A DNA stretch of 63,853 bases, counting the filler, from Hausera hauseri (lineage: Eukaryota): NCBI GenBank assembly GCA_046269625.1. It is 12 parts of 12 records of this genome, joined end to end, with 100 filler letters (N's around TTAATTAATTAA, not from the genome) between each part and the next. Parts side by side here need not be neighbours in the genome. Positions count along the whole stretch, not along the records: positions 11,071 to 15,501 come from JBJURY010585222.1; 11 more parts are not named here. One strand, written 5' to 3'. Both the position numbers and the translations under genes were made by a program. This document shows positions 1,837 to 52,141 of this stretch, in pieces. Every line of letters begins with the position of its first letter. Within the stretch, counting starts at the first letter, position 1. Under the pieces are notes generated by a model that was not told the DNA's origin, did no database searches, and saw nothing but the letters and a program-made list of their open reading frames with translations.

Positions 1837-4474
1837 CCCTTTCTTTACCAACGGGACTTCAGAGTCCCAGTGGTAAATTGCGATTAAACAATCGATTTGG
1901 ACTTCTGTACGGTCACTTTACCAGCGGGACTTTGTGGTCCCAGTTGGAGGAATGTGATTTATTGAACGCACCCTGTTTTGATTTCGTATTTACGACTGAT
2001 TTTCCTGTCAACTACGGTGTTTACTTCCTGAATCACGAATGGTTTGTAAATTGTTATTTACAGTGATAAAGCCTCATTTTGCACTAAGATTCGTATTCGA
2101 ATTTGCTGATTATTTATTGATATTGATACGATTGATGAGATTACATGACTAGATATTGAGTTAGTGTTGAACAATGCTTTTAAGTGCATGGGACTGGGAA
2201 GTCCCGTTGGTAAAGTACGTCGTTTCATCGTAAGAGTTCCTTATCAACCTAGCATTGTGTATTTGATATGGAATACCGTTCCCTGTCAGTAGTAAATTAT
2301 TGGATTTAGATTTAATTTGAATCAGTCTTTGTTAAAAATCCAAAATACAGTCATTTGAGGTACTGATACCGATAATTGGCTGATAAATATGACGACCATT
2401 CGTCTTGCCAACTCATAAAACCGACTCATTGAACCAAACTCTAATCATAATCCTATGGTAGTACCCACTCAGTAGGCTGACTGAGAGACAAAATGATGTG
2501 TATCAGTAACCAACATATGAACAAGTTGAATCTCGACTTTTATCAATTTTGCAGACAGTTTTTTTCATGCAGGTAAAATGGCTTTTTCTACATCCTCATT
2601 TTATAGTTGTAAGCATCAGGCAATACCAGTTGAAATACCAGATAATGCAGATTATACTCCTGTTGATGATGAGAGTGATTCTTCTGCATCCACTGATACA
2701 GAAGTCCAGCCTGATTCTGAACCGGAAGATGTTGACGATGAGATCAGTACACCAAGCACATCTCGGCATGTGGATTTAGGTGCGACAAAGTGGTGTAAGA
2801 AAGAGCTGCAAACCAAGGAGATTGAGTTTCTGGGTGAACCATCTGGGCCTGCTCAGGAGGAATTCGCTACTTGCAGCACATCGATCGACTATTTTACGAT
2901 GTTTCTGTCTGATGACATTGTAAATAATATTGCTGAACAGTCCAATTTGTATGCAGTTTGGAGACAACTGAAGTTTGGAGAGAAGCCACTGCCATCTTTG
3001 CAAAAAGAGGAGCTCTTGGTTTTTTTTTGGAATCAATTTACTGATGGGATACCACTGCTTCCAATCCTATACTCTCTACTGGAGTACTCAGACTGATCTT
3101 GGTGTCGATTGCGTGAAAGAGACCATGTCAAGAAATCGATTTTCGGAGATCATCCACACCTTGCATGTCGCCGATAACAGCAACTGGAGTAAAGAAAACC
3201 CTGATCCTCTCTACAAGCTACGACCACTTAACTGAGTTGAATGCTCAATTTTAGCTACTTTTTGCTGCAACTTAAGTGCAGTCCATTGACGAGGCGATGA
3301 TACTTTTCAAATGTCGCAGCTCAATCAAACAATACAATCCAATGAAGCCGATAAAGAGAGGCTACAAAATTTGGTGTAGAGCTGAGACCAATGGCTACAT
3401 TTGATGTGTACCAGGGCAAGTCTCTGGTTATTGATGCTCCTGCCGACATTGGACTTGGTTGGCAAGCTATCGTGAATATGTCGGCATCAATACAGGATAA
3501 GGGCCACGTGCTGTATTTTGATAATTATTTCTCCTCGGTCCCTTTGTTGAACTACCTAGCAGAACATGGAATCTATGCATGCTGCACGGTTCAAGATAAA
3601 CAGATCAAGCGTGGGGACTCTGACTGGCGTGTATCAGATAAAGGAGTGGTGTTCCTGAAGTGGAAAGACAACCGAGTTGTACATATGCTGTCAAGTGCAC
3701 ATGGCACTGCATGTGGCAAGACAACACGGCGGCTAAAAGATGGCAGCACCATTGAAGTGAGCCAGCCAGAGTCCATTGCAGCATACAACAGGAACATGGG
3801 TTGCGTAGATCATGCCGATATGCTGCACTCTCTGTATGGCTTTAACAGAAAGTCAAACAAAAGGTGGCATCGACTGTTTTTTGCATGACTGATATCACCC
3901 TGATAAATTCATACACTGTTTACTGTGATCTGGTGGAACGAATTCCGTTGCTGGGTTTTGTTCGATCTGTTGCGACTGGCCTGATGGCGTTTCGATTGTC
4001 AGAAACTGCTCAGGGAAAGAAACAAAAGCGGTCATTGCCGGAAGCTGCTACATCAAACAGAAGCAGTCACTGGCCAATGTTTGGTGAGGACAGGGGTCGC
4101 TGTACTCAGTGTTCCAAACTGAAACGCGAGTCGAGGCCATACTCCACTTGCAGCTTTTGCAAAGTTCATCTGTGTTGCAACAGCAAGATGAACTGTTTTT
4201 TTGACTATCATGAAGTTGCCGACAGTTAGAGACTGATAGTGCTGTTAGCAGCTTGCTTACTGAACTGTGACTGGCTCTTGGCATCAGTGTGACCTGTGTA
4301 GATTCGGATGTTGTACTTTACCGTCGGGACTTTTGAGTCCCGGTTATATAACTTTATTAGTTATATAAATTTTGCTAAAACTTTGCAACTGTATGTTATA
4401 CTAATAGTATTTACATAGAAAATGTGTGTGGAGTTGAAATATTAAAGGTGCAAATACTGTTGGTAAAGAAAGGG
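1837..4474 (+). mobile_element. Full-length (2.64 kb) piggyBac DNA transposon, decayed
   Basis: Perfect 16-bp TIRs CCCTTTCTTTACCAAC (1837-1852) and GTTGGTAAAGAAAGGG (4459-4474); TTAA TSD at 1833-1836 and 4475-4478; internal transposase. Confidence 0.97.
2578..4229 (+). pseudogene. piggyBac (PGBD-like, DDE_Tnp_1_7) transposase with frameshifts and stops
   Basis: Acidic N-terminus; MSRNRF, IDEAM, YNPMKPIK, YFDNYF, YNRNMGCVDHAD motifs; C-terminal Cys-rich CxxC..CxxC..LC..CF..YH domain; split over at least four ORFs. Confidence 0.95.
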
Positions 4475-5507: not shown

Positions 5508-5790
5508 TCGACGAAGCCCTATACGTGTCTCCTAAAGTGGTATAAGCGTGGAGTTTGATAGGAGTTGGTGCATTATTCGCTATTGTGATCGGCACACGAC
5601 CGGAGTGTACTCTCGTAAGTACGTTGCTGAGTGTTATATTTGGGTTTAGCGTTTCCCTTGGTTCAAAATATATTGGCTGATCATCATTTTGCTGAATCTG
5701 AGCGTAAATTATTATCACTGTTCTTGGTGGAATATTTTCATCTACTGGTATCCACACTTCTCCAAATTTTCTATCTTTAGCATTTTTCAC
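5508..5790 (-). CDS. Gypsy-type post-protease region (dUTPase-like beta fold), truncated by contig end
   Basis: IPPRTVIII..FEP..LSNVL....GRVPITIANN...PIKL...TTLG resembles the segment between PR and RT in Ty3/Gypsy pol; in frame with the protease. Confidence 0.65.
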
Positions 5791-5849
5791 GCCTTTGCTT
5801 GGCCTAATTTCTATTAATTTTCCTGTTTGTAAATCAATCGCTATATTTG

Positions 5850-6150
5850 GTAGCCTTTTTAGTAAATCTCATCCTAGGACAACGTAGTCAGTTAATTGTT
5901 CCATAACTGCAAAATCATATCTTAATGTTTGCCCAACTAATTGGACTTTTGGGTTCCATTTAAACAACGGTTTTGACATTTGGCCAAAAGCTCCTGTGCT
6001 GCCTGGGTCTTTCGTAGATGGGGGGTATAAGTGTCCTCTTAGCGTTTGAGGTATCGGGTCGTTTTTGATATAGGATATCTCAGATCCTGTATCGATTAAT
6101 GCATAGACTTCCCAATCCTCAAGACTAATTTTGGCGAATGGTCTTCCTTC
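5850..6150 (-). CDS. Retropepsin-type aspartic protease (polyprotein domain)
   Basis: VYALIDTGSEISYI active site; C-terminal VVLG*DLL matches the ILGRDLL motif, with TGA likely from CGA. Confidence 0.9.
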
Positions 6151-6844
6151 GATTACGGTTCCAAAGCAGTTTGATGCCGCTTTTGAATGTCTGGTGACGG
6201 ATACTTTGTGTCCGTTTATTGTTACTTCTGGGGCAGATATTATGTTTTTCGATAGTTGTCTTAATTCTCCATTTGGATATAATTTATTATTTTCTACGTG
6301 CAATTCTTCCATTTCATGAGTACTAATTAGAGGTTCCCTATTATTAGTATGTAATTCAGTATGTTGGAAGGTTTTAAATCTTGGGTTATCCCAGACTGTC
6401 GAACTAGTTTCGATATTCTTCGCTTCTCTTGGTGAGTATATCATTTTAGGGCCTTCCGCGGACTGGCGATAACACATTTTCCGTAAGATTCCATATCGTT
6501 TCGTTCCTTCATAAGGGTCTTCTACATTAATTGTCCTTTTATAAATTTCTGTCTGATATGAACTCGTGGATCGTTTGTCGCAATCATCGTAGAATGGAGC
6601 GGTAGGAGGTAGCATGGGCAGTGGCGCTTTAACGACAGAGTACATCTTATGTCTGTTTATTCCCGAAAATGCTTTTCCTCCCTTAGGCTCATCATCATCT
6701 GAATTGGTCCTTCGTGTAATGTGTTTTGCAATTTTCCGTTTCCGTAGAAATATCGATCTTCCTTTTCTTTTACGATTGTAATACCCTACATGGCGTTCTA
6801 CGTCCGATTTCCATCTACTCTCTTCGTATGCTTTCAGGAATTTT

Positions 6845-8660
6845 CCACAAGGCGTTACGATCGCGGTCAATATTTTACAAGAAAATCCAGTTAATGTAAA
6901 TATCTCATATCCATTTATTACAGCTTGGATGACGGCCTTAATCATTTGGATCAGAAAATATATTGCCAAAAATCCTGATGCTGCCTGTCCGAATATCAAA
7001 AATCTTCCCCAAATTTTATAGAGTATCTCTGTTGTTACTCTCTGGTAGTGGTTTACGCCAAGTAATGATTCCCATTTAGCTTGATATCTGGTGTCGTCTA
7101 CTACAGACGCCATTGCCCGATTTAGCTCATGTGTTTGTTGTCGTGGAAAAGCGAGGAATTGTCTGAAGGCCTCGATTTCCTTTGGTCTGTATATACCTTT
7201 CGATGAAGTGTCTTGGAATTTGTCATCTGTAATCCCTTTTGCTAGATTTGTCCCCGTCAGTTTGCTGGGAGCGGCAGTAATGCCTCCATTAGGTAAACTA
7301 ACCCAGTCGGTTTCGCTACGTCTAAACATGGGCTCTCCCAGGCTTGCTTTACAATCTTTAAGAGGGGTTGGTTGTGTCGCATTATCTAATAGCACTCTCG
7401 TCAATGGCATAGCTAATCTTGGAGTATTTTGATAAATAACAGGAAGCTCTTGGATGCAACGTTTCTCTTCTACGTTGATGGGTACTTCTCTCTTTTCGCA
7501 TTCATAGGTTAGCAACACTTCGCCCGTAACTCGACCGAAAATTCCTTCTCTCATGGGAATAATCGGAGAGGCTAATTCCGGGTTTGCATATATGAGAGCC
7601 ATTTTAGTTCTCATAATTTCAGTATCCAATTTGCAGTCGTTCATAATCATTTTATGGTATAATTCCGTTATTCCGACCTGTCCTTTATAATAGAAGTAAT
7701 CGTCTCTATTTTTCAGATAATCTTCAATCCGAACATCTTGCGTTTCCAGTTTATAAGTTTTCGCGTTTATCTCCGTTTCAGCTACAAAAAATGCTTCATA
7801 GTTTGTAGCGAACATTACTACGTCGCAGTGAGTCATCATCTCCTTCTTAATAAATTTTAGTCCGTGTGTGTCGGAAATTAGTATGGTCGGTGTTGGGTGC
7901 TGCGATACATCTTCGCGTGTTCTCGAATTAGTCTCCAATTTGTTTACGTATCTTCTTCCGGCGGTTTCATTGAACTTTAGATCCTTAATTTTAATAAAAT
8001 TACAATTTCTTCCAGAAGGAGGTTCCCATATTATGACCGAGCTTCTGAAAGCACATGTTCCGTCCTGTATATGACATTTCTGGTTCTCGGTGTATAGTTT
8101 TGTGACACTATGAAACATTACTTTTTGTGATCGCATTTCTGCTTCATAGAAATCCACAACCACGACATTTGATTCTAATCCTTTTCCCGTGTCATATTCT
8201 GCTCCATTACAATGTCCGCTATGCATATCCAATCTTCCAGCTACTACTTTGTATGCTCTGATTATTTTTCCGGGCTGCATCTCCAGTTGCATGCTGTCCC
8301 ATTGTATCCTTCCGGTTTCTTTAGCTTGTTTGCAATGTTGACGCTCTAAGTTCATCGGAATTAAGGGAGTGGTGGGCTTAATTATGGAGGAGTGTCCATG
8401 TATTAGTCCACAGTGAAAAATGCTGCGTGACCGCTTTAGCATGCATTCCATACCATCTAACGATACCAATTCTTGTTGCTGATACAGAAAGTAATTTTTC
8501 TCTCGCGTTTCTAGTTTGTGTGGCCTCGCATCTTCGCAGGCTTCTAGGTCTATTAAAGAATATCTTTGTCCTAATTTAAACTTGTCACAATCGTAGACAG
8601 TTACTGCACTTATGTGCTTTATCAACATCATCAATGTAAGTAAACTAATCAGCCAATTCG
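6845..8660 (-). CDS. Chuvirus (Jingchuvirales)-type envelope glycoprotein with signal peptide and TM anchor (polyprotein domain)
   Basis: WLISLLTLMMLIKHISA|VTVYDC signal; YDC..YSL.D...C, FHCG..HSS, GEVL...C, C.QELPV, GIY...I..FR.FL.FP and WGRF..FG...SG TM motifs match my recollection of chuviral G. Confidence 0.88.
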
Positions 8661-9377
8661 ATTCATTTTTCCGACCTCAAACGTCCGATATTGTCAGACT
8701 ACGTAATATATCGTCGAGCTTATTGTTGCCCCGTTTGTCTTCTTCCTTATCAAATAATCTTGTCCAATTTACTTCGCAAGACATTCTTCTTGCCGCTTTC
8801 CGTGCTAAATTTATTGCTCGGTTAATTTCAGTTTCTCGGTTCGGGTTTATTTTGACGGCTAAGTACAGCAAAACTTTCCTCAATTCTTCATTCGTGTTTT
8901 CTACCATAATCTTTTCTATTACCGACTCATCGGTTAAGCTACTTTTTGATAGTTTGAAACGTGAACTTTTCATTGTTTTAGCGGCGTCGAAAATTATCTT
9001 TTCCTTATCGTCTAATACATCCCCTCGAAAACTAGAATAATTCACAATTCGTACTAATTTTTTTATCAACTCAGTTAACTCCTCGTTTTCGGTGCTAAGG
9101 GTCGGAATCGACATTTGTCTTAATTCTTTAATTAGCTCTCCATTGTAATCCACTTCTTCTCGCATCTTCCTAGGTCTGCCGACTGGACGTTTCGATCTTG
9201 GACCTTTAAGGTTTGCCTCGCTTAGTGGTACTAAATTTATGTCGTATTGTTCTTTATCTTCGTCTGTTTGTAAATACTCAAAATATAGTGCCGCATCTGG
9301 AACTCCCATAACTTGTCCGACGCATTGCTCTGCTATGGCTTTACGTGTGGCTTCTTCCTTTGTCTGTTCATTAGCTA

Positions 9378-9595
9378 TTATTACCACTATTCGATTTGCT
9401 TCGTCGGGAATGATCCCGACGTCTATCAATTGTTTTAAGTCGTTTAATATTCTACCTCTAAATTAAAATCTATAATTCAACTCATTTGTCCCTCCATTCT
9501 TTACTAGCCATTCTCTTACATCCCTTACGTAAGAATGTGTAGTCAATTCGCATTCTTTTTCGTCCATCCATTCGGATGACACCATAATTTTCATC
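9378..9595 (-). CDS. Ubiquitin-like domain within the polyprotein (spans stop at 9463)
   Basis: MKIMV..VRDVREWL..G..NYRF*FRGRILNDLKQLIDVGI aligns with ubiquitin MQIFV..[31 protein letters not shown]. Confidence 0.72.
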
Positions 9596-11070
9596 GTTAC
9601 CTCAGGTTTAGCCCTTAAGGTTTTAGCGTACTTCTTTATCAACAGTTTCGGCACCGTACTATAAATTGTGTTTTCGCTAGATAACTTAGTTAAAGTTGGA
9701 ATAAGTTGTCGTAGTTTATTCTCAGCAATATTTACGTTAATCAATTCCATCAAATCTTTTTCAGTTAGGGCTGAGTCCAGTAGCATTTCTACTTTAATCT
9801 CCTGTCCTTGGGACAAGTTTCTTTCTCGTTTAACTGCACGAGAGTCATAGGTTTTTCGGCAAGTTTCGGGTTTGTTTCCAGCATCTGGAAGTCGGTAGTC
9901 CACTAAAACCGTATTGGCTCTTTGAATGTTCTCCCGAATTTCCTTTAATTTGGGTTGTATTTCTTTCATTTTCGTATTTCGGAAACCTACTCCATTTCCA
10001 CAGGCATATTGTATCGTTTTTAGTAATTCACCGAATTCGTTAGAATCAATCAGCCCCTTTTGATGATAATCTGTCAATTCAAGAATCACATCCTTTTGCC
10101 ACCGTTGTACAAATTCTTGTTTATTTTTAATCTCCGATTTGGTAAAAGCATACTTATTACGATAGACTGTGAGCTCTTTTGTTAATTCATCTAACCTTAT
10201 CGCTTTTTGTTTCGTTTTGATAGCTGTTTCTTCTACCTTGTGTATTTTGGGCATCAATTGCCTCATCTGCTCGTCACTGATTTCTGCCATTTCCATCAAT
10301 AAATAAGCTAACTCGTACATCTCATTTATGACCTTTGAATCAAGATTCATCGCATCCGACACTTTCTTCATGAATTTGTGTTCCTGAAAGCTAAAATGTG
10401 GATCGTTTCCTATTTCTATCAACTTGGTATGGAAATTCTGGTCTGATCCGGCCATCCATTCTTGAGGTTTCTGTAAGAAACTTATTGCATCGGTTAACGT
10501 ATCTCGGTATCCTGGACAAATGTCCATAATTTCGATATCTTGTGCAGAAATTTCGTCGATTGTTTTTCCAGTTAAGTATTAAATCCCTTCTAGCCGGACA
10601 ACCCTTAACTTTGAATTTACATCGTGAATTATATTCCGTTTCTCCGTAAAGTTCGTTTCTTCGATCAATTTGTAGATTCCCTCCATCGTCGACACTTCTC
10701 GTTCCTTTTCCATAAATTTTAGTTGTCGTAGCGCTTCAAATTGAGTACAGATATTTATTTCTATTCGCAACGTGGCTAAATTATGCGCACTTTCCTCTAA
10801 TTGCTGCTTCACCGTTGTCTCGCTCTGCGGAAATTCCGTTTTACGATCTTCTACCAATTTGATTAGTCGCGTTACTAGCTTGGACCATTCCGTCAATTGA
10901 TTTGTAATTACAGGCTTCGCCATTACGGCTTTATCTAACATCTTGTATGCATCTTCTAATTCATCGTCCGNNNNNNNNNNNNNNNNNNNNNNNNNNNNNN
11001 NNNNNNNNNNNNNNTTAATTAATTAANNNNNNNNNNNNNNNNNNNNNNNNNNNNNNNNNNNNNNNNNNNN

Positions 11071-11184
11071 TGCATAAAATTAAATCAGGCTTAAATGTCG
11101 ATTGATTGAACACATTGTCGATCAGAGATGGTCGTAGGTTGATTACACTTAATCATGTATCGAAATGTCAACACCCCCCTCTTC
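11071..11184 (-). mobile_element. Polypurine tract and start of 3' LTR of an LTR retrotransposon
   Basis: Minus strand CTGAGGAC...GAAGAGGGGGG (PPT, 11184-11174) followed directly by TGTTGAC at 11173, about 50 nt after an ORF stop. Confidence 0.8.
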
Positions 11185-11234
11185 AGACGATGCCGTCCTC
11201 AGCATCGCTGGGTAGGTTTCCAAGGTCCCGTTTT

Positions 11235-12250
11235 CTAGGCGGTAGTTGGATGATTCATATTTTCCCCATTGACTTTTCTTTTTAAATTTATGTTTAAGAG
11301 TAATAGTTTCTTCTTTTGCCACCTTCCTTTTTTTCTTGTTAGATCAACGAGGTTCTGTTCGTTAGGTATCATAGTTAATGAGGGTTCAGACTTGGTACTT
11401 GTTGCAGGTTCTGGTTGGAGAACTGGTGGTTTTACAATTTGATCAATATCGATCGCTGTCTCAAATTCCAATTTTGTTATGCTTGAGTAATCATTAATGT
11501 CCAGTAGTTCACGGGCTAGTATAACCGTTTCATCGTCTGATAGGACGAGCGACGTAAATTGTTTGTTTGAAATTGTATGTATTACTGCTTTAGATTTTAC
11601 TATTACATCCTCGTTTTGATATTTCTTCAGGGTGTTGTACATGTTAAGCATAACCATTTCCTTATCTCTTGTCCTTGTTGGATATGTAATGTTATTAAAT
11701 TTCAAAAAGACTTGTTTTTGAGTCAATGTTTTCTTTGGATTAATCTGTTCATTGTAGTATAAATCTCTGATTCCTGCTATTTGGTCAATATTAAAGATGG
11801 CGATTTGGGAATTGATATTGAATATATTCATTCCCACTATCAGTTTTCCTACTAATTCATGTCGAATAAAAGGCCAAATTTGATATTGATCGGCTTGGCC
11901 GATTAAATCCGCTTCTCTTATGCCTGTTGTTTGTGTATTTTAGTTATCTATACGTCCTCGCGGAGCAGAGTTGATCAAAAATAATTTTCTTATCCAAATT
12001 CATTATAGTGTTTTCCACGAGAGTAGCTTCGGAACGATTGTCTTTAATTAGATATGCGACATTAATAAATACAATGACTATTTTATTTCTTGAAACTGTA
12101 GATACTCTAGGAAAGGAACATCTTTTCTTCAATTGTGATTTATTTGGAAGAGGTAAACTAAAAATCGGTGTGTCACATTCTGGATGGGGGATCCTTTCTC
12201 TTCTAATAACTTCAATATATAGTGTTACGGTTAGGGTGGCCCTTATCCGT
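11235..12250 (-). pseudogene. Degenerate DEDDh (REXO/ISG20-like) exonuclease-fold accessory ORF of the LTR element
   Basis: IVFINV..TIMNLDKKIIFDQLC/PRGRIDN*NTQTTGIREADL..GKLIVGMNI..IRDL compared with REXO VAIDCE..SIVN..YD.FVKP..IVDYNTRFSGVTEADL..GKILVGH..IRDT; one frameshift and one stop. Confidence 0.62.
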
Positions 12251-12479
12251 CCCCACTATAACAATATTATCTCTAGTTTATAATTCGCTCTTTGAGCAGG
12301 TTAGGATTACTCGTTCTCGAGTAATCTGCTTGTGCCTTAGTATTTTAGAATAATTTATACCTCAATGCAGGTACTGCGTGCGTTCGTGAATGCCTCAAGT
12401 TACAGATTCCTTGTCTTAGCTATATGATTTTACACTGTATTTTAAACTTAGGGTAGTACCAATCAGCTTTAAGAGCCGA

Positions 12480-12829
12480 TGAAAAACTATATGATTTTAT
12501 CACAAAACAATGGATAATAACCTTTATTGAATCACGCACCACAATGAATACTTTCAAATAACACAATAGTCAGCAGAATATAGAGTCAATTATCAACTGT
12601 GCTCAAAGCTAGTTGTAGCGAAACCTAAGTCGCAATCACTGTCGATTGAGTTTTCGAATAAGACAATGCGATACTAAGTCGCAAAATTTTGTTCAATTCA
12701 ACTATTTTAACGTCTGCTTATATACTACTCAGATACACCGATAATCTATTTGTTCGTCTCTTTCGAACATTTCTCACATAATTATATGTACATTCTAGAT
12801 TTTTATATCTTTATATGCTCATTCCGACA
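12480..12829 (-). mobile_element. Possible LTR-like segment
   Basis: TG at 12829, TATATAAGC at 12724-12716, AATAAA at 12528-12523, CA at 12480. It does not match the visible part of the 3' LTR. Confidence 0.3.
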
Positions 12830-12929
12830 CCTACAAATAATGAAAAATCTAATAACAATTGTCCAAAATTATTTACAACGATAAAAATTTTGTACATATG
12901 CTTAATCCATATGTTTTGTTTAGCTCATT

Positions 12930-13563
12930 TTCTCACAGAAGTTACTGTTTCATTATTGTTGTCTTTGAAAGATAATCAATGGCAATGACCAATCAAAAAG
13001 CCGCAAAAAGGATTTTAGAATTTGAACCTAACGCTGCAAACGAAACGGATAATTACGGAAGAAATTTTTTACATGTTGCTGTACAGACTCTAAACAAAGA
13101 AGTCGTATTTTTCCTTATTCAAGTCAATGCAAATCTCAACGCTCGAGTTGAAGATTATTTAATGCACACTCCGTTACAACTGGCAGTTATTTCCCGGGCT
13201 CCTGAAAATATGATTAGAAGTTTAATTTTAGCTGGTGCGAAAATCGATGATGAAACGTTTGAAAAGCAAAATTTATTACACCTTGCAGTCACACATAATT
13301 GATCATATTTGCCTCATGATATTTTTATAGGACATCAGGGCAATAATTTCAATACGCCCTTGCATCTCGCTATCAAAAGTGACGTGAAAGAATTAATCGA
13401 ACCCTTGTTGATTAAATCATCAAGTTATATCGGTTTAAAAAAATTAAGGGGTGAAAATATTTTGCACATGTTAGCTATACATGCTAAAGAAAATGTTATT
13501 GTTCTTTTTTCCCTTATTATGGATGTTTATCCTCTTCTTCCGCTCGGTGAGAAGATAATTTAG
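12930..13563 (+). pseudogene. ANKFY1: Rabankyrin-5 ankyrin-repeat fragment
   Basis: KAAKRILEFEPNAANETDNYGRNFLHVAVQ..VFFLIQVNANLNARVED..TPL matches recalled ANKFY1 KAAEAILKRESGAAEQVDNKGRNFLHVAVQ; internal stop, fragment only. Confidence 0.8.
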
Positions 13564-13829
13564 GTTCGGTATTATTTACTTTTTTACCTTTGTGCCAGTT
13601 ACTACAGAAGACAATTTGAGTGCTATATTGAGATACGTACAGAAAATACCATTACAATCTAGCTGGTACAACTCGAATTTTGCAAGTGTCCATAATTTAC
13701 TTAATATTGATTTGTCTTCGAAATTTCTTATTACTGACATAGTTGACATGGTTGTTGTTAATTTCAGTTTTAATGAATCGTTCGTTTATAATGTTTGTTG
13801 TACATTTAATTCCAGTAAAATACGAATGT

Positions 13830-14805
13830 TACATAAACGATTGAGATACTGTGTCATACTTCCTAAACGTGTGTCGTTTTATGAAGGAGTGTCCTGTGAC
13901 AATTTTCCCATACTTTTACTTGTTCCTTCCAATACTGACGCCATGTCTACAAATTTAATATGGAAATTTCATACTCATGATGGATTGCATTTAATACTTT
14001 TAAATCGTGACAAGTTTCAAAAGGCTTTCGTCAAATCAATATCTTCAATTTGGAAAAATGTATTTAAGTCGGACATTCATAACGAAATTGAAACAAATAG
14101 TTTGTCCCAAGTCTGGCGTCAGTTGTTATCGTTTCTTAATAGTTCAAATCAATCTAACAAAGAGTCTCATTTACAATCAATAATCGACAGTCTTGCTGAA
14201 GAATACAACCATTCGGTATTTACTAAAGTTCTTCAAGAACTCAGTTTTTCATGTTTCAATCGGAAGTTCTGTTTACGGAGTTACTGTCAGCTCGTGGTGT
14301 TGTCGTAGATATAGAAATCTCGGCGATATTTCCTACGCCAATAGCGATCTCTATTCTTCATTAGAAACATCGTGGAAACTATTCCATTTTCCCGAACCGT
14401 CGAAATTCAATAAAGTAACCATTTCAAAGGCAGAAATTTCTCATTGTTTTCGTCAAAATGATTTGTGGAGTACTTGGTAGTGGCCAAATGAGCTTAGCTA
14501 AAAAAATTACGCAACTTGCACAGGATAATAAGTTCTGGTCCGTGATTTCACCAACAACTATTGAAGAGGCATTGTCAAGCATGGAAGACATTTTGAAAAA
14601 GTTTCAAACCGTTTGGAATATGAAAGGTCGAAAACAATTGAGAATCATTTTGTTGTCGCCACCATTTTGCGGTTCCTTCCAAGCTTGTCGACAATTAAAA
14701 CGTGTCTATGATCAGAAACAATTTACAATAGGAAGTATTTGCATATGCATCGATCAACACAGTGCTCATTTGAACAACTATGAATTCACGATTCCAGAAT
14801 TACCG
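13830..14805 (+). pseudogene. DNAAF9: DNAAF9/C20orf194 (Shulin)-like fragment including CobW-like P-loop region
   Basis: CVILPK..FYEG, KFQKAF...SSIWK, ICGVLGSG..LA, FTIGSICICID motifs resemble C20orf194; frameshifted. Confidence 0.6.
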
Positions 14806-14819
14806 GATTCCTACAGACA

Positions 14820-15125
14820 TATCAGCCAAGGATCTTCAGCATTCAACATAATATTGTCAATCATAAATGTATTTTTGAACAACATATTGACTTTGTACCC
14901 GGAGTTTTCGGTTTTCCTTCAACACCGTTTACGTTGTATAAAAATATCAGTGGTAAGTATACGAAATTGAAAAGTAAAAATATAACAATAGAAAGAAAGA
15001 ATGTAAATTTAACCTTTGCACGATTGCATATCGCATTTAATAATGTTACTGATATTGATGAGGGAAAATACCTCATCGTGGCCAAAAATATTAAAGGTCA
15101 GGGAAAATTTTCATTTTCATTAGAA
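14820..15125 (+). pseudogene. Immunoglobulin I-set domain fragment
   Basis: V.G.P..F.LYK...LHI.FNNVTDIDEGKYLIVAKNIKG contains the D.G.Y...A.N..G motif. Confidence 0.65.
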
Positions 15126-15307
15126 TCTGTAGCGAATACATAATAGAGTGGCCCAATTATCTCATTCATTCCCTGTACATAACTGTGGGCCTTGTTTGTT
15201 TTACAGAATATAAAAAGCACCCGTTGAACGACTTCCCAATGCATTTCTTTGTCTTCCCTAAACGGTTTGTAGGTATTTGAATTATAGTGACTATAATCTG
15301 ATCGCAT
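15126..15307 (-). pseudogene. TBC1D13: TBC-domain RabGAP fragment
   Basis: HWEVVQRVLFIFCKTN..SYVQGMNEIIGPLYYVFATD nearly matches recalled TBC1D13 HWEVVERILFIYAKLNPGIAYVQGMNEIVGPLYYTFATD. Confidence 0.88.
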
Positions 15308-15601
15308 ATCAGGTACAAGAACTTTCGGGTGTAGACCTTTCTGAGTTTCAGAAGAACTCTGAAAGTAAAAGCATATTAATTATATATCTGTTATAAACCT
15401 AATGTTGAGGAGATTACATTTAAAAGTAAAGATACTTTGGCGTATGTTTTATTTATTTGTATATTCTATTATTTATTTATTCGTTTTATGAAAAATTGTT
15501 TNNNNNNNNNNNNNNNNNNNNNNNNNNNNNNNNNNNNNNNNNNNNTTAATTAATTAANNNNNNNNNNNNNNNNNNNNNNNNNNNNNNNNNNNNNNNNNNN
15601 N

Positions 15602-17545: not shown

Positions 17546-18262
17546 CACATTGTCCCACAAAATTATCAACACCTAGATATTTCATGATATACTCAATAAA
17601 TCTGCCATTTTTACCAGTTCTGCCGTGAGAACGAATTATTAATGCTTGTTTTGTTGAATAAAATATGACGTGTTAAATGCGCAAAATTTACACAAAATGG
17701 GTCGTAAATCTGATGTTTCATAACTGGTGTGAGCAAATCTTTAGAAGTGCATGAAATGGAACTTTCTAATCGTGAAATTGGAAGGAAAGTAAGCTTGCAT
17801 TATTCAATTATATCAAAAGTTATTAAAAGATACCGTAAAACTGTCATCGTTTACTATTTGTGATCACTCATGTGAATAGCCTACATTTATACATGAGAGA
17901 ATATGCGATTATTAATAAGGCGAATACATTTTAAATTGAAAATTCTTCCAGAAAACACTAAATTTAATATTGGAAAAACATTGGCACAACTAAATAAACG
18001 TAAATGTTTTCAAAGTTCAAATTTTCTTAACGTATTTGGGGAGATTTGAACAAGTGCATAATACTGTTGCATTTAAAGACTCCTAGGCTATTTTATATGT
18101 TATTAATAAGCATTAGATTTTGCACATATCTCTGACTTAGGGTTACCAGATTTTGTTTGAAAATGAGAGACAGAAACCGAACAAACAAATCTGTCCCAGG
18201 CATAAAATTAAAGTCCGAATTCCATGAAAATTGGGGTGTTGATAATTTTGTGGGACAGAGTG
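17546..18262 (+). mobile_element. Non-autonomous Tc1/mariner deletion derivative
   Basis: 28-bp TIRs (26/28 match) CACATTGTCCCACAAAATTATCAACACC; TA TSD at 17544-17545 and 18263-18264; HTH remnant MGRK...SNREIGRKVSLHYSIISKVIKRY at about 17697-17845. Confidence 0.9.
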
Positions 18263-19991
18263 TATATATAAACACCATACGGTTGAATCTTTACGAAGTT
18301 GATTCTGAATAAATTGGATTCTATCAGCATTCGACTTCTGAAAATTATTAATTTAGTCGAGATGATCAAGTAATTTAACTATCACAAACACTACGATTTG
18401 CATGGATAACAATTTGATTTTTAGAAATCACCATGTCCATAATCATCATAACCATGACAAAACTACTTACACATCTTAGAAACATACCTATTCCGTATAA
18501 ATTTTAGTAATAACGGAGACCTTTCAGAATTATGAAATAAAATATTTTGATATCAAAAGTGGAGATCGCAATAGTCTGAATTGAGTAGTGTTTGTTAACA
18601 AACCGACACTATCACACTATACACGCCGTGTATGGTATATTTCATTGTTGTCAGAATACATTATCTTCAGATATACATCATCGTCAGAACATATACAACA
18701 ACATGATTTCTAGTTTGACCATACATCAATTACGACGACCTCCATCAAGGAGAACATTACACTTGCTCAGACCTTCCCAGGAGTATGACGTAACAAGTAC
18801 ATTTATTTCCTCCTTAAGTGTCTGCGATCTCCACTTATTTGTGTTCAATGAAATATCCATCTAACATTTGTCTCTTCGATGACAAAATATATTGTTACCA
18901 TGAACACAAAGACATTATAATATATTTTATACCTTATAAATGTATTATGTTTAAACTACTTTTAAAAGATATTTGACGGTTACTGGTATGTATAATGTAA
19001 CTTTACCTTGAAATTATTAAATTTTAACAATTTATTAATGATATACTACTGACAAAATTATCAATAGAATGTTATTAGAAATATTTTTAGTTATAATTTC
19101 ATGATTATAGTATTTTGTTAATTGATTTTCAATTTAATAATTTATTAATAAACTTAAAGGGGTGATGTTTTGTTTTATCGGGAATTTTACTGACAAATTA
19201 ATGAAAATTATAAATGTCTGAATGATGAATTTTATTAATCAATCCGAAAACCATAGTTTTAATAATTATTATTCTGGAACTATATTTCCTCATTTTCTTA
19301 AAATTAAAATTTGATGGATTCGGAATATTTTAGCTTCGATTAATGTAATTCTTATTACAATATTAGACAAGAGCATTTTTAAAATAAGGTTCCGTTAAAA
19401 TAAATCATCAAACAATCTTTTTACCACCCAATTCAAAATTAGCAGGCTAGCAACAGTTGCCTACAAAGGAATAAATTTTACTCTAAATCTGGATGTTTCA
19501 TAACAAATAGTTAGAGAGACGTTCAAAACATAACATATTATGAAAAAGATTTTGCCGACAAAGTCAAAATAATGCAATTAATTCTTCTAAATGTCATAAA
19601 TTTGCGATGACTTGTTCAAGTCTCCCCACTATGTTTAGGAATATGAAATTATCATTTTAATACTCCATTTATAGCGTTTCATTGATATTCTGCCTAAATA
19701 AAAAATATCGGTCAATTATTTCGTTTACTATTTGTGATCACTCATGTGAATAGCCTACATTTATATATGAGAGAATATGCGATTATTAATAAGGCGAATA
19801 CATTTTAGATTGACAATTCTTCCAGAAAACACTAAATTTAATATTGGAAAAACATTGGCACAACTAAATAAACGTAAATGTTTTCAAAGTTNNNNNNNNN
19901 NNNNNNNNNNNNNNNNNNNNNNNNNNNNNNNNNNNTTAATTAATTAANNNNNNNNNNNNNNNNNNNNNNNNNNNNNNNNNNNNNNNNNNNN

Positions 19992-25782: not shown

Positions 25783-27800
25783 GTATTTCATTATAATACT
25801 ATGGCAAACATCCGGCTCATGGATTGGAGCCAAGCAATCTCTGTAAAATTTGCACATCTAAAACAAAGCACTTATTTGATGAAGAGCACAAATAAGAAAA
25901 CTTACCATTTCGCAGAAGTGAATTTGGAAATAATGAAAAATATAGCCATGTCAACTTGTACTGTCTAATTTTGATAATTGATACATTAAAACAAATATAA
26001 GGAAATATTTTTAATGGTGCGGTAAATTCATGCGTTTGTTTTAATTCACCAAATGCATGAACTTGTCAGGTAATTATGCCATCGTATTGCTTGTCATTGT
26101 TTTAATGCATGAAATGATTTGTGTCGGGGCGGTTTCCATATATTACGAATCTATTAAAGCTATCAGATTCTTCGAATAATGCTTGCTTGATCGAATATTT
26201 GAGTTCTATTCGATATTTCTTCAAGATTGAATAATGTTTTCGATCATCTGACACCAGATTCGTATTTCCACATAAGCTTTCCTATCCATGTACGTTTAAA
26301 GATTTGTCGAATTCCGTGTGCTTCACCTTCAAAATCACCACTATATCTTAATCAATTTAACAAGTCATTTGCATTTAATGAGAACTTTTAGAATACGTGA
26401 AAACTTTGTTTTTTATACACAATACCGCACTGTACCGCACTAATATTCATTGCCTGATAGGTTTTCCATCATGGGAAATCGAATGCCGTCATAATATTCT
26501 TCAAATAATGCTTTCTTGACTGAGTTTTCGAGTTTGAATAGCTAAGTATTCGACTTGTAAGCACAATTTCGAACATCTAACATCATATTTCGATTCGACA
26601 TGCATGATTTCCTATCCAGGCCCGCTATTACATTTATCGATTTCAGCTTCATTGCGCTTCGAATGCACATTTTGCTTATTTCGAAATATTGATTTTATGC
26701 CTATATAGTACGGTTTCGTGGAATAATTTTTACGTATGTGAAGGTTTTCGAATACGAGGAATCGATTCCCGCCATCAGATTTTTCGAACAGTTCGATATT
26801 CGTGCCAAAAAATTTTCGAATTTCGAGTTTTTGACTCGAGATTCGAACTCGGCATAACAGATTTCGTATCTGTCCCCGCTCAATGTTATATAGAATTTTG
26901 ATTCCTTAGAACGTAAAAAACATGCTAAATCGCCAATTTCTGCACTATGGATCGATATTAATCTATAAATAATCAAAAAATTTAAATTCTAACTGCACAT
27001 TCACATAATACACCATGTTTCCTTTCGATTGCACCCGGTCATATGTCCTAATCATCTATATTGGAAATATCGGAAATTCGATCTTATTGATTTTTTCACA
27101 CTTGCACACATGTTTTTGCACTGCACGCCATATATCAAGGTGCATCTCAATGTGCTCTATCTAGCTGCACTTGACCCAGATCAATTCCATCAATCCTACG
27201 CTGCACAACTGCAAAAGTGTGAAAAGTGAAAAAGTGCCCTGGCAACCGTATCCAAGTGCACACCGCACTCGAGTTGTGCACTGAACAATACTACATCAAG
27301 TGTTGCACCTGCCTGTACATGTTGATTATTGATTTAAAATTTATAGCGGAAAGGTTTGTGGTGGTTCTAAACCAATTGGAATTATTCGAAATCCAATCAA
27401 TCGGTTTAAATTCTAACTGCACATTCATTTACAACATCAAGTGCCCTTGCGATTGCACCCGGTCCCGAGCCCCAAAGATCGATTTTTAAAAATTCAAACA
27501 TCCAATATTATTGAATTTTGCACACTTGCACATTTACTGAACACTTTCACTTGAACCAATCGATGTGAACTGATGTGCACTATCGATTAGCACTTTGTCG
27601 CGATAGATTCGATCAATACTGCACTGTGCTATTATCGATTTGTCAAAAGTGCAAAAATGTGCATAGCAACGGTGCCTGGCGACACCGTTGCTAGGCACTA
27701 TATGGATCAATAATGCACAGTGTGCACTATTGATCCGCACATGTGTAAAATCGATATCGATTACCCCCCCCCCGCGATGGGCCGAACCGCAATTTTCAAA
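25783..27800 (-). repeat. Palindrome-rich non-coding arm upstream of a Polinton pPolB (probable long TIR/subterminal region)
   Basis: 25783-27380 is a diverged reverse complement of 59580-61190; 27520-27800 is a reverse complement of about 30775-31036. Confidence 0.8.
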
Positions 27801-30774: not shown

Positions 30775-31036
30775 GAAAATGTGCTTTTTGTCCCACCCCG
30801 GGGGGAGTAATCGATAAATCGATTTTGCACATATGCCGATCGATAGTGCACACCGTGCACAATCGATCCATAAAGTGCCTAGCAACGGTGCCGCTAGGCA
30901 CTGTTGTTAAGGGCACTTTTGCACTTTTCACAAATCGATCGCTGCACAGTGCAGTATTAATCGAATCGATCGGGACAAAGTGCTAATCGATAGAGCACAT
31001 CAAGGCGCATCGATTGGTGCACAGTGCAAGTGTGCA
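30775..31036 (+). repeat. Second, inverted copy of the palindrome-rich arm end
   Basis: GGGGGGAGTAATCGATAAATCGATTTTGCACA matches the reverse complement of 27740-27775. Confidence 0.85.
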
Positions 31037-31789
31037 NNNNNNNNNNNNNNNNNNNNNNNNNNNNNNNNNNNNNNNNNNNNTTAATTAATTAANNNNNNNN
31101 NNNNNNNNNNNNNNNNNNNNNNNNNNNNNNNNNNNNACGTAAATTAGAAATTAATTTTTTACAAATTTTTTAGAAAAATATTTATTTAATATTTTGTAAG
31201 GTGGAACCTTACAAGGCTCCCCCGCCAGAAAAGAAAAATTAAAATTAATCAATGATTTTAATTTTTAAATTTTACGTAATTTAAATTTGTCAAAATTTGA
31301 GAATTGTGAAATTGGAGAAAATAACTCAGAATTATCACGAAATATTGGCATAGTTTTGATTGTGCCCATGATTTAGATTTTCCTTGAAGTGACGGAAACA
31401 TATGTAGTAATTAATGAAAATAAATTCAATGCGGTGCAGTTAAATGGTATTTAACATAAAGTGCAGCATAAAAATCATGTTGTTTTGTAAGTTAAATAAT
31501 TTAAATATTTAGCATTTTTCATGTACATTTCATTTTTTGTTTATTTAGTTTTCTACTATTAGGAATCAGTGTGGTTATAAAAGTTTTATTTTTATATTAT
31601 GAAATATATCACATAAGCTCCAGAATTTTTAAATTGCAAATTCAAGTTTGTTTAAATATTTAGTATTTTTGATTTTGTAAATATTTGCACAATTATGATT
31701 AGAATTTTGAACTTTTTTGGATTTTTTTTCAACTATTCAGAATGGTTAATTTATTTTAGAAGGAATTGATTTAAACTTTCGTAATGGGA

Positions 31790-32230
31790 CACGTTACTTG
31801 GCCGTCTTATGGATTACGACCAGTTTTCAATACTAAATTAATGCCGATTAGTACGTTGAACATTTCAACTTTTTCTGTAGCCAGAGCAACAGCTGCGCAC
31901 GTTACCATTGCAATCAATGTGTAACCATCATCATTTAACACGATCAAATTAATTTCGATTTTTGAATGAGGTAAGTTTTTAAAATTAATTGCTGATTGCA
32001 AAGAACTCTGCAGAAATTTGGAATGTACACTATTATGCTCATTTACGAAACCTAAACGAATTTTCTGTGAAAACAGAGCAAATCTCATGTTAACGGAACG
32101 TTGCTCTTCAGATTTCAATTCTATGGGACTAAACAGAGAAAATAACTTTAGTATCGTTATATTCTACGTATGCAGAACCATCGGCGTTGGAAATTACGGA
32201 TGAATTTAGACAGATTTTGCCTTCATTAAT
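31790..32230 (-). pseudogene. EXOSC6: Exosome RNase PH subunit MTR3-like, frameshifted
   Basis: SVISNADGSAYVEY..TKV and LQSAI...LPHSKIEI.LIVL.DDG..L...TCAAVALA..VEMF lie in different frames. Confidence 0.72.
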
Positions 32231-32573
32231 TTATTTTGCAAGTGAATTTTGACAATGTGGAATTTTATTTAATTGGTTCATATGCATCAAATGATGAATT
32301 GAATTATGGTTTTTTCAGGTTTTACTTTGTTGTTTATCGCATTATAAATACCATTTCATACGAGCAAAGGTATTTTCAAGTTAGTAATTTTATTCTATTC
32401 TTGTTTAATGTGTTTTCAATATTTAGTGAATTAATAATATTTCGTTAGGAGCATATTAAGCAAGTACCATTTATTTCGACCATTAATTTAAATCTATATG
32501 AGGATATTTTATTTTACACACGTTGATAAATACAGCATAATTTTGCCACGTTTCTTATTTTTTTTGACAACAC

Positions 32574-32804
32574 ATGGATCAAGTTTTGAATTTCATTGAA
32601 CCAGCAAAGCAATTTGCAAAAGATTCAATTCGTCTTGTTAATCGATGCACGAAACCGGACAAAAAAGGTTTGTATTGGTATTTTTTCTTTGTAACTATTT
32701 ATAAACTTATAGAATTCAAGAAAATTGCTTTTGCAACTGCCATTGGATTTTCAATAATGGGATTTAAAATGTTTAAACCTCCAACTTGTGCGTTTACTTA
32801 TTAA
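32574..32804 (+). pseudogene. SEC61G: Sec61 gamma, 3'-truncated; exons 32574-32667 and 32713 to about 32766
   Basis: [29 protein letters not shown]|[18 protein letters not shown] with a 45-nt GT-AG intron; the conserved tail IGFFVKLIHIPINNI is replaced by unrelated sequence. Confidence 0.9.
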
Positions 32805-33499
32805 TTTTAAAATGATCAAACGAATTATTTTTCATGAATAAATAAATCAGTTTTAATAATCAAAACTTTTCAGAGCTGCGTTCACATAAATTGTTTGTGG
32901 GTAAAAATGATAAACTTTTGTATGTGGTGGAATTTTAGAGGAAACAGATAATATTTGAACGCGGTAAATTAATAATAATTTTCAATTCTTAAACTCAATT
33001 TTTATTTAAAAAATTGCAATCGTTTCTGTAAATCAAAATATTAAAAGTCATTTAAAAATTAAAATGGTTGACCATAAACATACCAAGTCAAAAATTTAAT
33101 AATTGACTATTAATGAAAATTTGTTTATGATTAATCAATACATGTATATGTATATGTATTAGTTACCCAATACTGTAGAGAATTTATTACATTATTTACA
33201 GAAAAAACGCGTTTTACGATATTTTACTTTTCACTTTGAAACCTTAAAATTTGTTTTTTAATATGCAATAATTTTATGCACTATTTTATTTAACATATTT
33301 ATTGTGTATCGTTTTACGAATTCGCCCTGGTCCGCATTTAACGAATTAAAATATGATATTGTATTATAAATTTGTTTAAATATTAAAATGTTTACATTCC
33401 ATTTTTTTGCAAATATTTTGTGAAAATGTAAGTTTTTATTTACTTTCGAAAAAACGTGTATATTGTGGTAAAAACATGTTATGTAAGTCAAAAAATTTT

Positions 33500-35005
33500 A
33501 GGGTGCTAATAGAGATGTGAAAATTCGACTGTCATATCCTTTCTAACATTAGACCTTTGTGGAAATAATCAGGATGCCATAGTTATTTATAAAAAGAAAA
33601 TCCTTTAAAGGACTGGAAACCATGGCAGTACTTTGCTAAAGATTGTAAATATACATTTAACATGAAACATATGAATCCTAAAAAGGTGGAATTACAAGAA
33701 CGATTTGGCTTATTCTGTGTTGATTTGGAAAACGCTATGCATTGTGATTCTGACAACGGCAACAGGCTCGTACCATTTAGCCCGAGACAGAATCGCAAAT
33801 TTAATTACATTTTAACGAAACCCGAACAAGAATGGTTGACAGCTTCAGACATCAGAATAAATTATATCAAACTATCCGGAGAAAAACTCCATTCTAAAAG
33901 TCCACAAGAATACTTCGGTGCTTCGAATATAAAAATCGGTGGACGTCCATTTTGCAATGGACACGCATCAAAAGTCAGAAGTGGAACAAACGGAACATAC
34001 ATGTGCGATTGTCAACACAATACGTCTGGACCGATGTGTAATGAATGTGCAATTGGTTATTCCAGAAATTTCGCTTATCCAATATACCATCAAAATGCAT
34101 GCCAACGTAAAGTGTATTAATCGTGATTTTTAATTTTTGAAATAGCTTGCTTGTGTCATTCGGTTGGAACTTATCCCGGAAAGCCATGTAACAAGGATAA
34201 TGGAAAGTGTTTTTGCAAACCGGGTGTAACTGGAGATAAATGTTCTCAGTGTGCTCGAGGTTATAAGCAAACAAATTCCAAAGAAACGCCATGTAAAAGA
34301 GGTATCGATAATGAATTTTCAAATACAAGTAATGCTGTTTTAGTCACCTACAGGAATCTGGTGAGAAATGGAGGTTATTAATTGTTCTTTGATTATTATG
34401 CAATGCTTAATCTTCATGAAGAAAAATGGAATTTTAAAAGCACAATAATCATGGATTTTGGATTTTGATCGGTCATTTGTTTTTTCGATGAGGGTGAATG
34501 TGAGTATTGCCAACAAGAAGAGAAAACAATTAACTTAAAACGGTTCTGTCGGAAAGATATAAGTAATGCTTATTAAACATAACTTCCATCAAAAATTGTC
34601 TGTTTAGCTCTAAAAGTTTCACTGAGATCAAAAGAATCTCGAGAGAATTGGATTCGTTTTTCATTAACACTAGAAAACGTATGGATATCAAAAATGAATC
34701 CAGAAATCAAAGAACTCAATTTAGATATGGTAAAAGTACTTGACATTTGGGTTAACGACCGTTTAGTTAACTGTCAATGCATCGATTTTGACTTCAATCA
34801 ATCGTACTTAGTTATGTTAAAAGCACAAACGAAATATTTCATGGGAAAACGAGAACTAGTCATTACACATCGAAGCATCATTCAGGAATGGGATGATATT
34901 TTCTATGACTACTTTGATCGATTCTCAGAACTTCACGAAGCGGGTGCACGAAAATCAACAGTCGACATAGTTTCGCATGCTACCAAAAAGTTTAATCAAG
35001 TTTAA
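33500..35005 (+). CDS. Netrin (laminin VI part, two LE repeats, NTR/C345C domain); multi-exon, 5' part disrupted
   Basis: WKPWQYFAKDC, QEWLTASDIRI, CNGHAS..CDCQHNTSG, CHSVG..CKPGVTG..CARGYKQ..PC, FCRKD and NTR domain; introns 34107-34145 and 34563-34607; frameshift near 33595. Confidence 0.88.
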
Positions 35006-51235: not shown

Positions 51236-52141
51236 TCAATCGACCAGCCGTCGCTGTATTGCGGCCAGATCGATGGACGCTACGTTCCAATGCTCCATTT
51301 CAGTGACGTTAATAGCACCAAGTTCTGTCAAGAGGGATCTCATATCATTGCCATTGACAAACCATACAACATTCGTTACGGAATTGTCGTACACAATTGC
51401 AATGGAATGTCGCAGAATGGCAGTTGTGAGAATGCCGATGTGTCCAAGGAAATCCGAGAAAACGATCGAAGAGCCGTGCCAACTGTTATATGACTGTTGA
51501 ACAACGAATGAACACTCTCGTTCATCATTCACCACCAGCATTAGTCAGCTGATGCCTTTCGGTCTGTGTCTGACGACGAGACGGACGTTGACATCAGCGT
51601 CAATTGAGTCATTACAATGTACAACAGACGCATTCCGCACGCAATCGGCCCCAAACAACTCGTACATATTTAATCCGTTGTTGGACATAGTTAAATTGAC
51701 AAACCCAAATCCGGTGTACATTTTATCGAGACCCACAATGGAATTTTGGAATACTAATTTGACGAAATTGGCTCCATTGGTCACGGCACGATGGTAAAGT
51801 GCATCCATCAATTTCCTGCCGAGTCCTTTTCCTCTTAGTGACGGCAGCACGAAAAAATCATCAATAAAGTAACCAAACCCATGTAATTGCGAATATTCAT
51901 ACATGTACAGCAAATAACCAACTGGCCGCGATTCTTCTGCCAATTGATCCAACAGAATTAGACAATGAAAGGAATTTGCTTTGAATGATTCCAACATCAA
52001 TTGTTCAGTCATCAGAAAGTACTGATTCATATCCTCATGGTACTGGACAAGTCTTCTTGTGAAATCAAATACCGTTAAAATATCAGCTTCAGTAGCCGAT
52101 CTAATTGAATACATACTGTTAGTAGATCGGGTATCCACCAT
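51236..52141 (-). CDS. Diamine/spermidine N-acetyltransferase (SAT-like GNAT); second degenerate GNAT domain in frame after TGA at 51545-51547
   Basis: IRSAT..D, VGYLLY, FIDDFFVLPSLRGKGLG acetyl-CoA motif; second half has YNSWHG..FSDF and LGAINVTEMEHW; intronless. Confidence 0.85.

Follow-up and report, generated by a model that had tools for sequence, protein, structure and literature searches.

Layout of the locus

The DNA analysed here, referred to as the window, is a 63,853-nucleotide stretch of the Hausera hauseri assembly GCA_046269625.1, composed of 12 short contigs of 4.3-6.2 kb each that are joined by 100-nt linkers of N's and six-frame stops. Most of the contigs are repeat material, including a piggyBac-type transposase, an LTR element, pieces of a Polinton-like polymerase, and a 32-nt satellite, and the presence of netrin and DNAAF9 sequences indicates an animal with motile cilia. 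The third contig holds a patchwork of pieces from four genes, in the order ANKFY1 (+), a DNAAF9 domain (+), one immunoglobulin (Ig) domain (+), and a TBC domain (-), with at most short spacers separating them, and every piece is internal to its gene, with both ends cut. This patchwork is real. Because the mosaic lies inside contig 3, nothing outside positions 11071-15501 is a real neighbour, and the last piece stops 140 nt short of the contig end.

11071-15501: contig 3, unplaced, 4431 nt, bounded by N linkers and holding the whole mosaic
11071-11184, minus strand: probable 3′ end of an LTR retroelement, with the purine tract GAAGAGGGGGG (11184-11174), TG at 11173, and roughly 100 nt more before the contig ends
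11238-11939, minus strand: 234-codon open reading frame (ORF) in the sense of the purine tract, its length reached by 0 of 1000 shuffles
12223 to about 12780: non-coding segment starting TGTTACG, right end and identity unproven
12780-12938, plus strand: AT-rich DNA (24% GC), an intron-like lead-in to ANKFY1 with a pyrimidine-rich CAG at 12938
12947-13610, plus strand: ANKFY1/rabankyrin-5 fragment, about residues 798-1044 of 1148, with a firm core at 12976-13551
13610-14451, plus strand: coding-derived stretch of about 0.8 kb, with an open frame at 13559-14305 and frame changes near 14245 and 14435
14452-14808, plus strand: DNAAF9 (Shulin/C20orf194) domain, Pfam DAAF9_2, profile positions 1-131 of 210, E 4.6e-11
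14810-15122, plus strand: one Ig (I-set-like) domain, by Pfam I-set and fold match
15116-15358, minus strand: TBC-domain fragment, Pfam RabGAP-TBC, E 2.8e-8, antisense to the other three pieces
15359-15501, minus strand: AT-rich DNA (20% GC), an intron-like lead-in to TBC with a pyrimidine-rich CAG at 15359, reaching the contig end

Identity of the pieces

Within the ANKFY1 piece, 12976-13551 aligns with residues 823-1018 of a scorpion rabankyrin-5 (1148 aa; 41% identity, E 2e-33), and the top hits that bear names are mostly rabankyrin-5. In a protein search with this piece, 497 of 2050 candidates were hits, and the best identity among the 120 hits listed was 42-47%; no near-identical parent was present among those 120, which were drawn from proteins of 343-2000 aa, a range that a short annotated parent would escape. 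Of 150 shuffles, 2 matched the frameshift-aware extension in the 3′ direction to 13610 (residue 1044) and 14 matched that in the 5′ direction to 12947, the latter being not significant. A candidate GT-AG intron of 30-35 nt at the 3′ junction (13564/13569-13598) was discarded, as the similarity to ANKFY1 continues across it.

The DAAF9_2 match is cut at its last profile position, 131, and the 0.8 kb that precede it (13610-14450) gave no significant match in protein, PDB sequence, Pfam, or Atlas searches. Protein searches returned nothing for 13598-14305 (929 candidates) or for 14446-14802 (38 candidates), PDB sequence searches with both DNAAF9-side frames gave nothing significant, Atlas gave nothing usable for the ORF in this stretch or for the 234-codon ORF, and a model of 13598-14245 reached a pLDDT of 34. 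In the domain description drawn from PMC12633730, DNAAF9 has 1177 aa and its N1-N2-M domains precede a YjiA-like C-terminal part, so this same-strand stretch is probably DNAAF9 sequence upstream of the GTPase-like domain, as collinearity, position, and strand suggest; a piece of a fifth gene is a conceivable alternative. One of the frame changes in the stretch would be explained by a 29-nt GT-AG interval at 14216-14244, and equally by loss of one base in a T run.

For the Ig piece, the Pfam I-set match at 14865-15122 (E 0.001, 19.5 bits) lies under the curated cut-off of 23.7. A low-confidence single-sequence model (pLDDT 52.8) resembles Ig folds, with TrkC d5 as the best Foldseek match (E 2.5e-4, 23% identity) and a middling best VIA Z of 7.3, and the nearest fold to this predicted structure would be Trk d5. 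The TBC piece is 74% identical to P0125 over 58 aa (15283-15116) and has 748 relatives at E 0.001 or better; the searches gave only the TBC family and unnamed relatives, and the piece is presumably TBC1D13-like. The Ig and TBC matches run tail to tail and share the 7 nt at 15116-15122, which bears out an opposite-orientation joint placed near 15125 by the first-pass annotation of this DNA. The overlap is compatible with microsimilarity at a switch point but is no test of it. That annotation had also named four fragments, and ANKFY1, the DNAAF9 domain, the Ig domain, and the antisense TBC domain have indeed been matched, whereas 13610-14450 stays without a match and the TBC1D13 label is presumptive. 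By title, papers that combine two or more of ANKFY1, TBC1D13, and C20orf194 contain no report of synteny or capture.

Coding state and decay

Since the frames of the pieces differ and one piece is inverted, the block is unable to encode a fusion protein. Open frames of 183 and 249 codons, matched by 0 of 1000 shuffles, testify to coding ancestry, and the lesions are mostly found in ANKFY1, where they are mostly deletions: an in-frame stop at 13300 comes with a net loss of five codons, and the best alignment paths take six frame changes as well as more deletions of several codons close to the two ends. Runs of 108 and 249 codons without an error adjoin these multi-codon deletions. The stop, the frameshifts, and the multi-codon deletions identify a decayed copy and not merely misjoined live genes, although sequencing error may account for single-base changes at homopolymers.

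Frame changes concentrate in ANKFY1 (6 of 8, P 0.007, or 4 of 6 on a stricter count, P 0.05), and the other 1.75 kb of the mosaic needs about two, although these counts are uneven: a reference was aligned for ANKFY1 alone, and some of its count falls in end extensions that have weak support. The uneven lesion density hints at pieces of different age or at stepwise addition. On the best reading, the block encodes nothing intact and is a non-functional mosaic with no sign of any activity. An 18-nt inverted pair (83%) joins 14227-14244 (+), at a frame change, to 15341-15358 (-), at the start of the TBC piece, and is probably due to chance, as similar pairs are common in contig 3.

Introns and intron-like ends

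Both outer pieces are preceded by AT-rich DNA that ends in an acceptor-like CAG, at 12938 (+) and 15359 (-), each with 11 pyrimidines in the 15 upstream positions and each in the sense of its own gene. CAG sites of such score number 16 in 18,610 control nt, giving a chance of 0.025-0.05 per end in what is a post hoc test, its threshold and window having been picked after the data were seen. A TAG site at 12923 has the same score as the CAG at 12938. Four introns in contig 7 score lower (8-10 of 15), so the pyrimidine measure is not a tuned model of the acceptors of this species. A further TBC exon upstream of 15398 in the sense of the gene, proof of a retained intron had it been there, was sought and rejected: when the DNA upstream of the TBC piece was compared with the upstream TBC coding sequence of P0125, 294 of 300 shuffles scored equally high.

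The three inner junctions of the mosaic are all coding-to-coding. The early remark that the block has no obvious introns is accurate for the aligned parts, inside which there are none, but it carries little weight, because introns in this DNA are only 39-52 nt long and sparse. At the local intron rate, an intron-free aligned length of 1.46 kb has P 0.09-0.29 and the whole 2.4 kb has P 0.03-0.17, so that across the range of P 0.03-0.29 the absence of introns is weak evidence.

These intron lengths come from a second block of broken host genes, which served as a control.

31137-36863: contig 7 block with EXOSC6/MTR3 (minus strand), SEC61G (plus strand), and netrin (plus strand) within 3.2 kb

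The EXOSC6/MTR3 part matches residues 125-193 of 272, with its upstream part in another frame; SEC61G has an ATG at 32574 and a match that stops near residue 52 of 68, its 3′ end missing; and netrin retains Laminin-N positions 119-233 of 233, two EGF repeats, and the NTR domain, its N-terminal part being missing or unrecognisable. The block keeps a short head-to-head spacer and its introns, two of which, of 45 and 39 nt, are exact gaps of 15 and 13 aa against solved structures, and two more GT-AG candidates measure 52 and 45 nt. Netrin remnants upstream of 33590 and a C-terminal remnant of EXOSC6 were seen by eye and rejected as unsupported when tested. Since these broken genes carry introns, DNA-level copies of broken genes exist in the assembly. 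Host genes in this genome are very densely packed.

Flanking DNA and the search for carrier ends

To the left of the mosaic, the purine tract and TG pattern suggest that 11071-11184 is probably the 3′ end of an LTR element, to which the 234-codon ORF probably belongs. No second LTR for the start at 11173 was found in contig 3 or elsewhere in the window, contig 3 has no pol domain, and the ORF has no Pfam, PHROG, or usable Atlas hit. The ANKFY1, DNAAF9, and Ig pieces are antisense to this end, the sole one of an LTR element that bears a diagnostic feature (the purine tract at 11174-11184). Closer to the mosaic lies the segment at 12223-12780 that the first reading had called LTR-like. Its TGTTACG start agrees with that description, but no partner end, no convincing primer-binding site, and no second copy of it were found.

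Searches for other carriers were confined to the 4431 nt of contig 3, and the contig cuts off the right end. The 3′ end of a Helitron is a hairpin followed by CTRR. Sites of this kind in contig 3 number zero on the plus strand and one on the minus strand (12769), and at least one occurs in 11 of 20 shuffles, although real Helitron ends may fall beyond the contig; the hairpin terminator itself is treated in PMC6431247, in the part relevant here. There is no RepHel gene in contig 3. The longest inverted pairs there measure 24-27 nt (70-79%), and neither terminal inverted repeats (TIRs) nor a target-site duplication turned up on either side of the block within the contig, which ends 140 nt past the last piece. 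The longest run of A or T in contig 3 is 7 nt, so there is no poly(A), a feature that is not specific to LTR-mediated retrocopies. Contig 3 has no blastn self-hit at E 0.01, and the 64-kb window holds no further copy of the block. With no Helitron, TIR, or paired-LTR ends found there, the block is not filed as a Helitron, a Pack-TIR element, or an LTR retrocopy.

Origin of the mosaic

The reading that fits best, to which a probability of roughly 0.45 is given, is a mosaic without function that arose through capture at the DNA level and through deletion, of a kind known from transposons. Host-gene pieces of 0.25-1.2 kb would have been copied from several genomic loci and joined via template switching in DNA repair, replication, or transposition (Pack- or Helitron-type transduplication), perhaps in more than one step, and small deletions would afterwards have eroded the mosaic. 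We infer that the template was DNA rather than mRNA, that the parents are unlinked, and that the joints carry microhomology; any link to a mobile element is equally presumptive. This reading is favoured because an acceptor-like CAG follows AT-rich DNA at both outer pieces, because no spliced TBC coding sequence precedes the TBC piece, and because mixed orientation calls for no extra step at the DNA level. It has to contend with the lack of a demonstrated intron inside the 2.4 kb of pieces, with inner joints that are coding-to-coding, as an RNA template predicts, and with the lack of carrier ends, the LTR-element end being 1.7 kb off.

These same inner joints and the missing intron are what recommend LTR-mediated retroposition, in which a retrotransposon reverse transcriptase (RT) jumped between host RNAs packaged together, and the resulting chimera took the place of the internal genes of the element. 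The absence of an A run over 7 nt, the 5′ and 3′ truncation, and the LTR-like DNA to the left of the block fit it too, and the examples given by Tan et al. 2016 (PMC5131818) include chimeras of two genes in animals and of three in maize Bs1. It is nevertheless doubtful, as three of the pieces are antisense to the purine-tract end, the segment at 12223 has neither a partner end nor a primer-binding site, acceptor-like intron ends stand ahead of both outer pieces, one piece points the opposite way from the others, and no LTR-element DNA lies on the right, within a contig that ends at 15501. RT switching among mRNAs had been the lead idea of the first-pass annotation; capture of fragments of unrelated host genes is upheld, and RT switching is a possible but not the favoured route, since the acceptor-like outer sites and the intron-bearing block in contig 7 fit DNA-level capture slightly better. 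The Helitron or Pack capture suggested alongside it gains from that slightly better fit of DNA-level capture but finds no Helitron or TIR terminus. An unlikely history, kept in play by the very dense packing of host genes, is that the parents are true neighbours (+,+,+,-) in a compact genome and that a duplicated segment of about 10 kb lost three multi-kilobase stretches. Three genes within 3.2 kb in contig 7, outer intron-like ends that suit two converging genes, and ANKFY1 lesions that are mostly deletions accord with such a collapse, which would nonetheless require three deletions of about 2-3 kb with all six breakpoints in coding DNA and no spacer left. Small deletions should far outnumber large ones, yet few small lesions occur outside ANKFY1, and about two frame changes in 1.75 kb are ill-suited to three multi-kilobase deletions by gradual decay.

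An artefact of the library or assembly, either an amplification chimera or a misjoined low-coverage contig, is improbable. Contig 3 is short and unplaced, and several frame changes in contigs 3 and 7 fall at homopolymer runs, like sequencing errors; against this, the mosaic has at least three joints in 2.4 kb, compared with at most 1 per 10 kb for multiple displacement amplification (MDA) in the figures taken from PMC11660948, and the multi-codon deletions in ANKFY1, next to long stretches free of errors (108 and 249 codons), point to real decay. Still less credible is a retained small-RNA source locus, transcribed into piRNAs or siRNAs that target the parent genes. The mixed orientation of the pieces and surroundings rich in repeats would suit such a locus, and captured fragments in plants trigger siRNA cross-talk on donor genes in the account given by one review (PMC12030055), but the block shows no sequence sign of transcription or selection, and targeting would have to be judged with no near-identical parent among the 120 hits listed (best identity 42-47%). 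The ranking is thus DNA-level capture first, RT switching second, collapsed neighbours third, artefact fourth, and the small-RNA locus last.

Comparison with known systems

Multi-gene chimeras are documented for LTR elements in animals (PMC5131818) and for Pack-TIRs (PMC8277862). They also occur in Pack-MULEs, of which one in five holds several loci (PMC12030055), in pack-MULEs of myxozoans (bioRxiv 10.64898/2026.02.11.705288), and in Helitrons of bats, where fragments are captured sequentially and also in reverse orientation (PMC4224331). The block would resemble Pack-MULEs and Pack-TIRs in fusing fragments of several genes, in its frameshifts and stops, and in a DNA-level origin, as these elements are characterised in extracts from PMC12030055, PMC8277862, and bioRxiv 10.64898/2026.02.11.705288. 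The hallmark of several-gene fragments with pseudogene lesions is present, the parents being only presumably unlinked, and the difference lies in the lack of TIRs or a target-site duplication in a contig that ends 140 nt past the last piece. Likeness to Helitrons, as outlined in the relevant parts of PMC4224331 and PMC6431247, would extend to multiple fragments in either orientation, sequential capture, and retained intron ends, and unlike a Helitron the block has a hairpin-CTRR signal that is not above chance and no RepHel gene in contig 3.

Chimeric LTR retrocopies such as maize Bs1 share with the block partial internal fragments of several genes, no poly(A), and adjacent LTR-like DNA, to judge from the examples in PMC5131818, which combine two or three genes where the block combines four. 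Such a retrocopy is flanked on both sides by the LTRs of one element, whereas the block has one probable LTR start (11173) and a contig that ends at 15501; three of its pieces are antisense to the diagnosable end, and intron-like DNA stands at its outer ends. Gene-fragment accumulations on B chromosomes offer a further likeness, with broken gene pieces amid repeats in unplaced sequence (PMC7509943, in the section cited). The block works like Pack, Helitron, and LTR chimeras, and assignment to any single one of them would be tentative. By title, it is not described in the best 15 of 36 papers on invertebrate gene-fragment mosaics.

Wider meaning

The evidence describes a four-gene patchwork that is real and decayed and belongs to a general kind already known; as to mechanism, the balance leans to DNA capture. 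It adds one more product of multi-gene capture, and four genes in 2.4 kb place it at the high end of the animal examples compared. It is also a warning for annotation, as such contigs yield false paralogues and false gene fusions. The second broken-gene block within the same 64 kb is the main reason for wider interest: if capture is common in this lineage, it would offer an animal system in which DNA-based and RNA-based capture are separable, with tiny introns as built-in markers and with donor silencing open to test. A bolder proposal, quite a long shot, is that patchworks of broken host genes, present in 2 of the 12 contigs, are widespread and stem from an unrecognised DNA-level capture agent, possibly tied to Polinton/Maverick-like elements, which are abundant here, with some of the patchworks feeding small RNAs that tune the parent genes. 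Mavericks reportedly carry cargo.

Other features of the window

The remaining contigs are varied. A broken piggyBac-type transposase lies at 2530-4229 (+; Pfam DDE_Tnp_1_7, E 5e-24), about 76 copies of the 32-nt satellite occupy 39253-41689, and an intronless GNAT acetyltransferase at 51239-52144 (-) has one in-frame stop followed by 102 further codons with the same codon usage. The LTR-element ORFs at 5509-10968 (-) run in one frame over 5.4 kb, interrupted solely by four stops, and encode a chuvirus-type fusion glycoprotein (Pfam Monjiviricetes_fusion, E 2e-68) with a weak aspartic-protease match (E 0.013) downstream in the same ORF, an unusual env-before-pol order. In contig 6, 264-nt inverted repeats (82%) at 27538-27797 and 30775-31036 surround 3 kb with no Pfam hit; this element was considered as a Pack element and set aside, since an interior with no Pfam family and no strong coding signal gives no evidence for one. 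A 1.6-kb repeat at 25785-27367 recurs at 59591-61187 in contig 12 (79%), where it adjoins Polinton-like ORFs.

Contigs 4, 5, 9, and 12 contain frameshifted ORFs that match one another and have the look of a Polinton/Maverick polymerase, and they are presumably pieces of such a polymerase, the family name coming from motifs and the cross-matches. In the window, a tRNA gene search found none, and the sole Rfam match, which lies outside the mosaic, is a nuclear RNase P RNA at 18560-18833 (-; 63.7 bits) beside Polinton-like genes. It is flanked by 171-nt direct repeats that are 98% identical (17847-18017 and 19721-19891), and the RNA with its repeats either forms a tandem unit or represents a host RNA gene that has been carried along.
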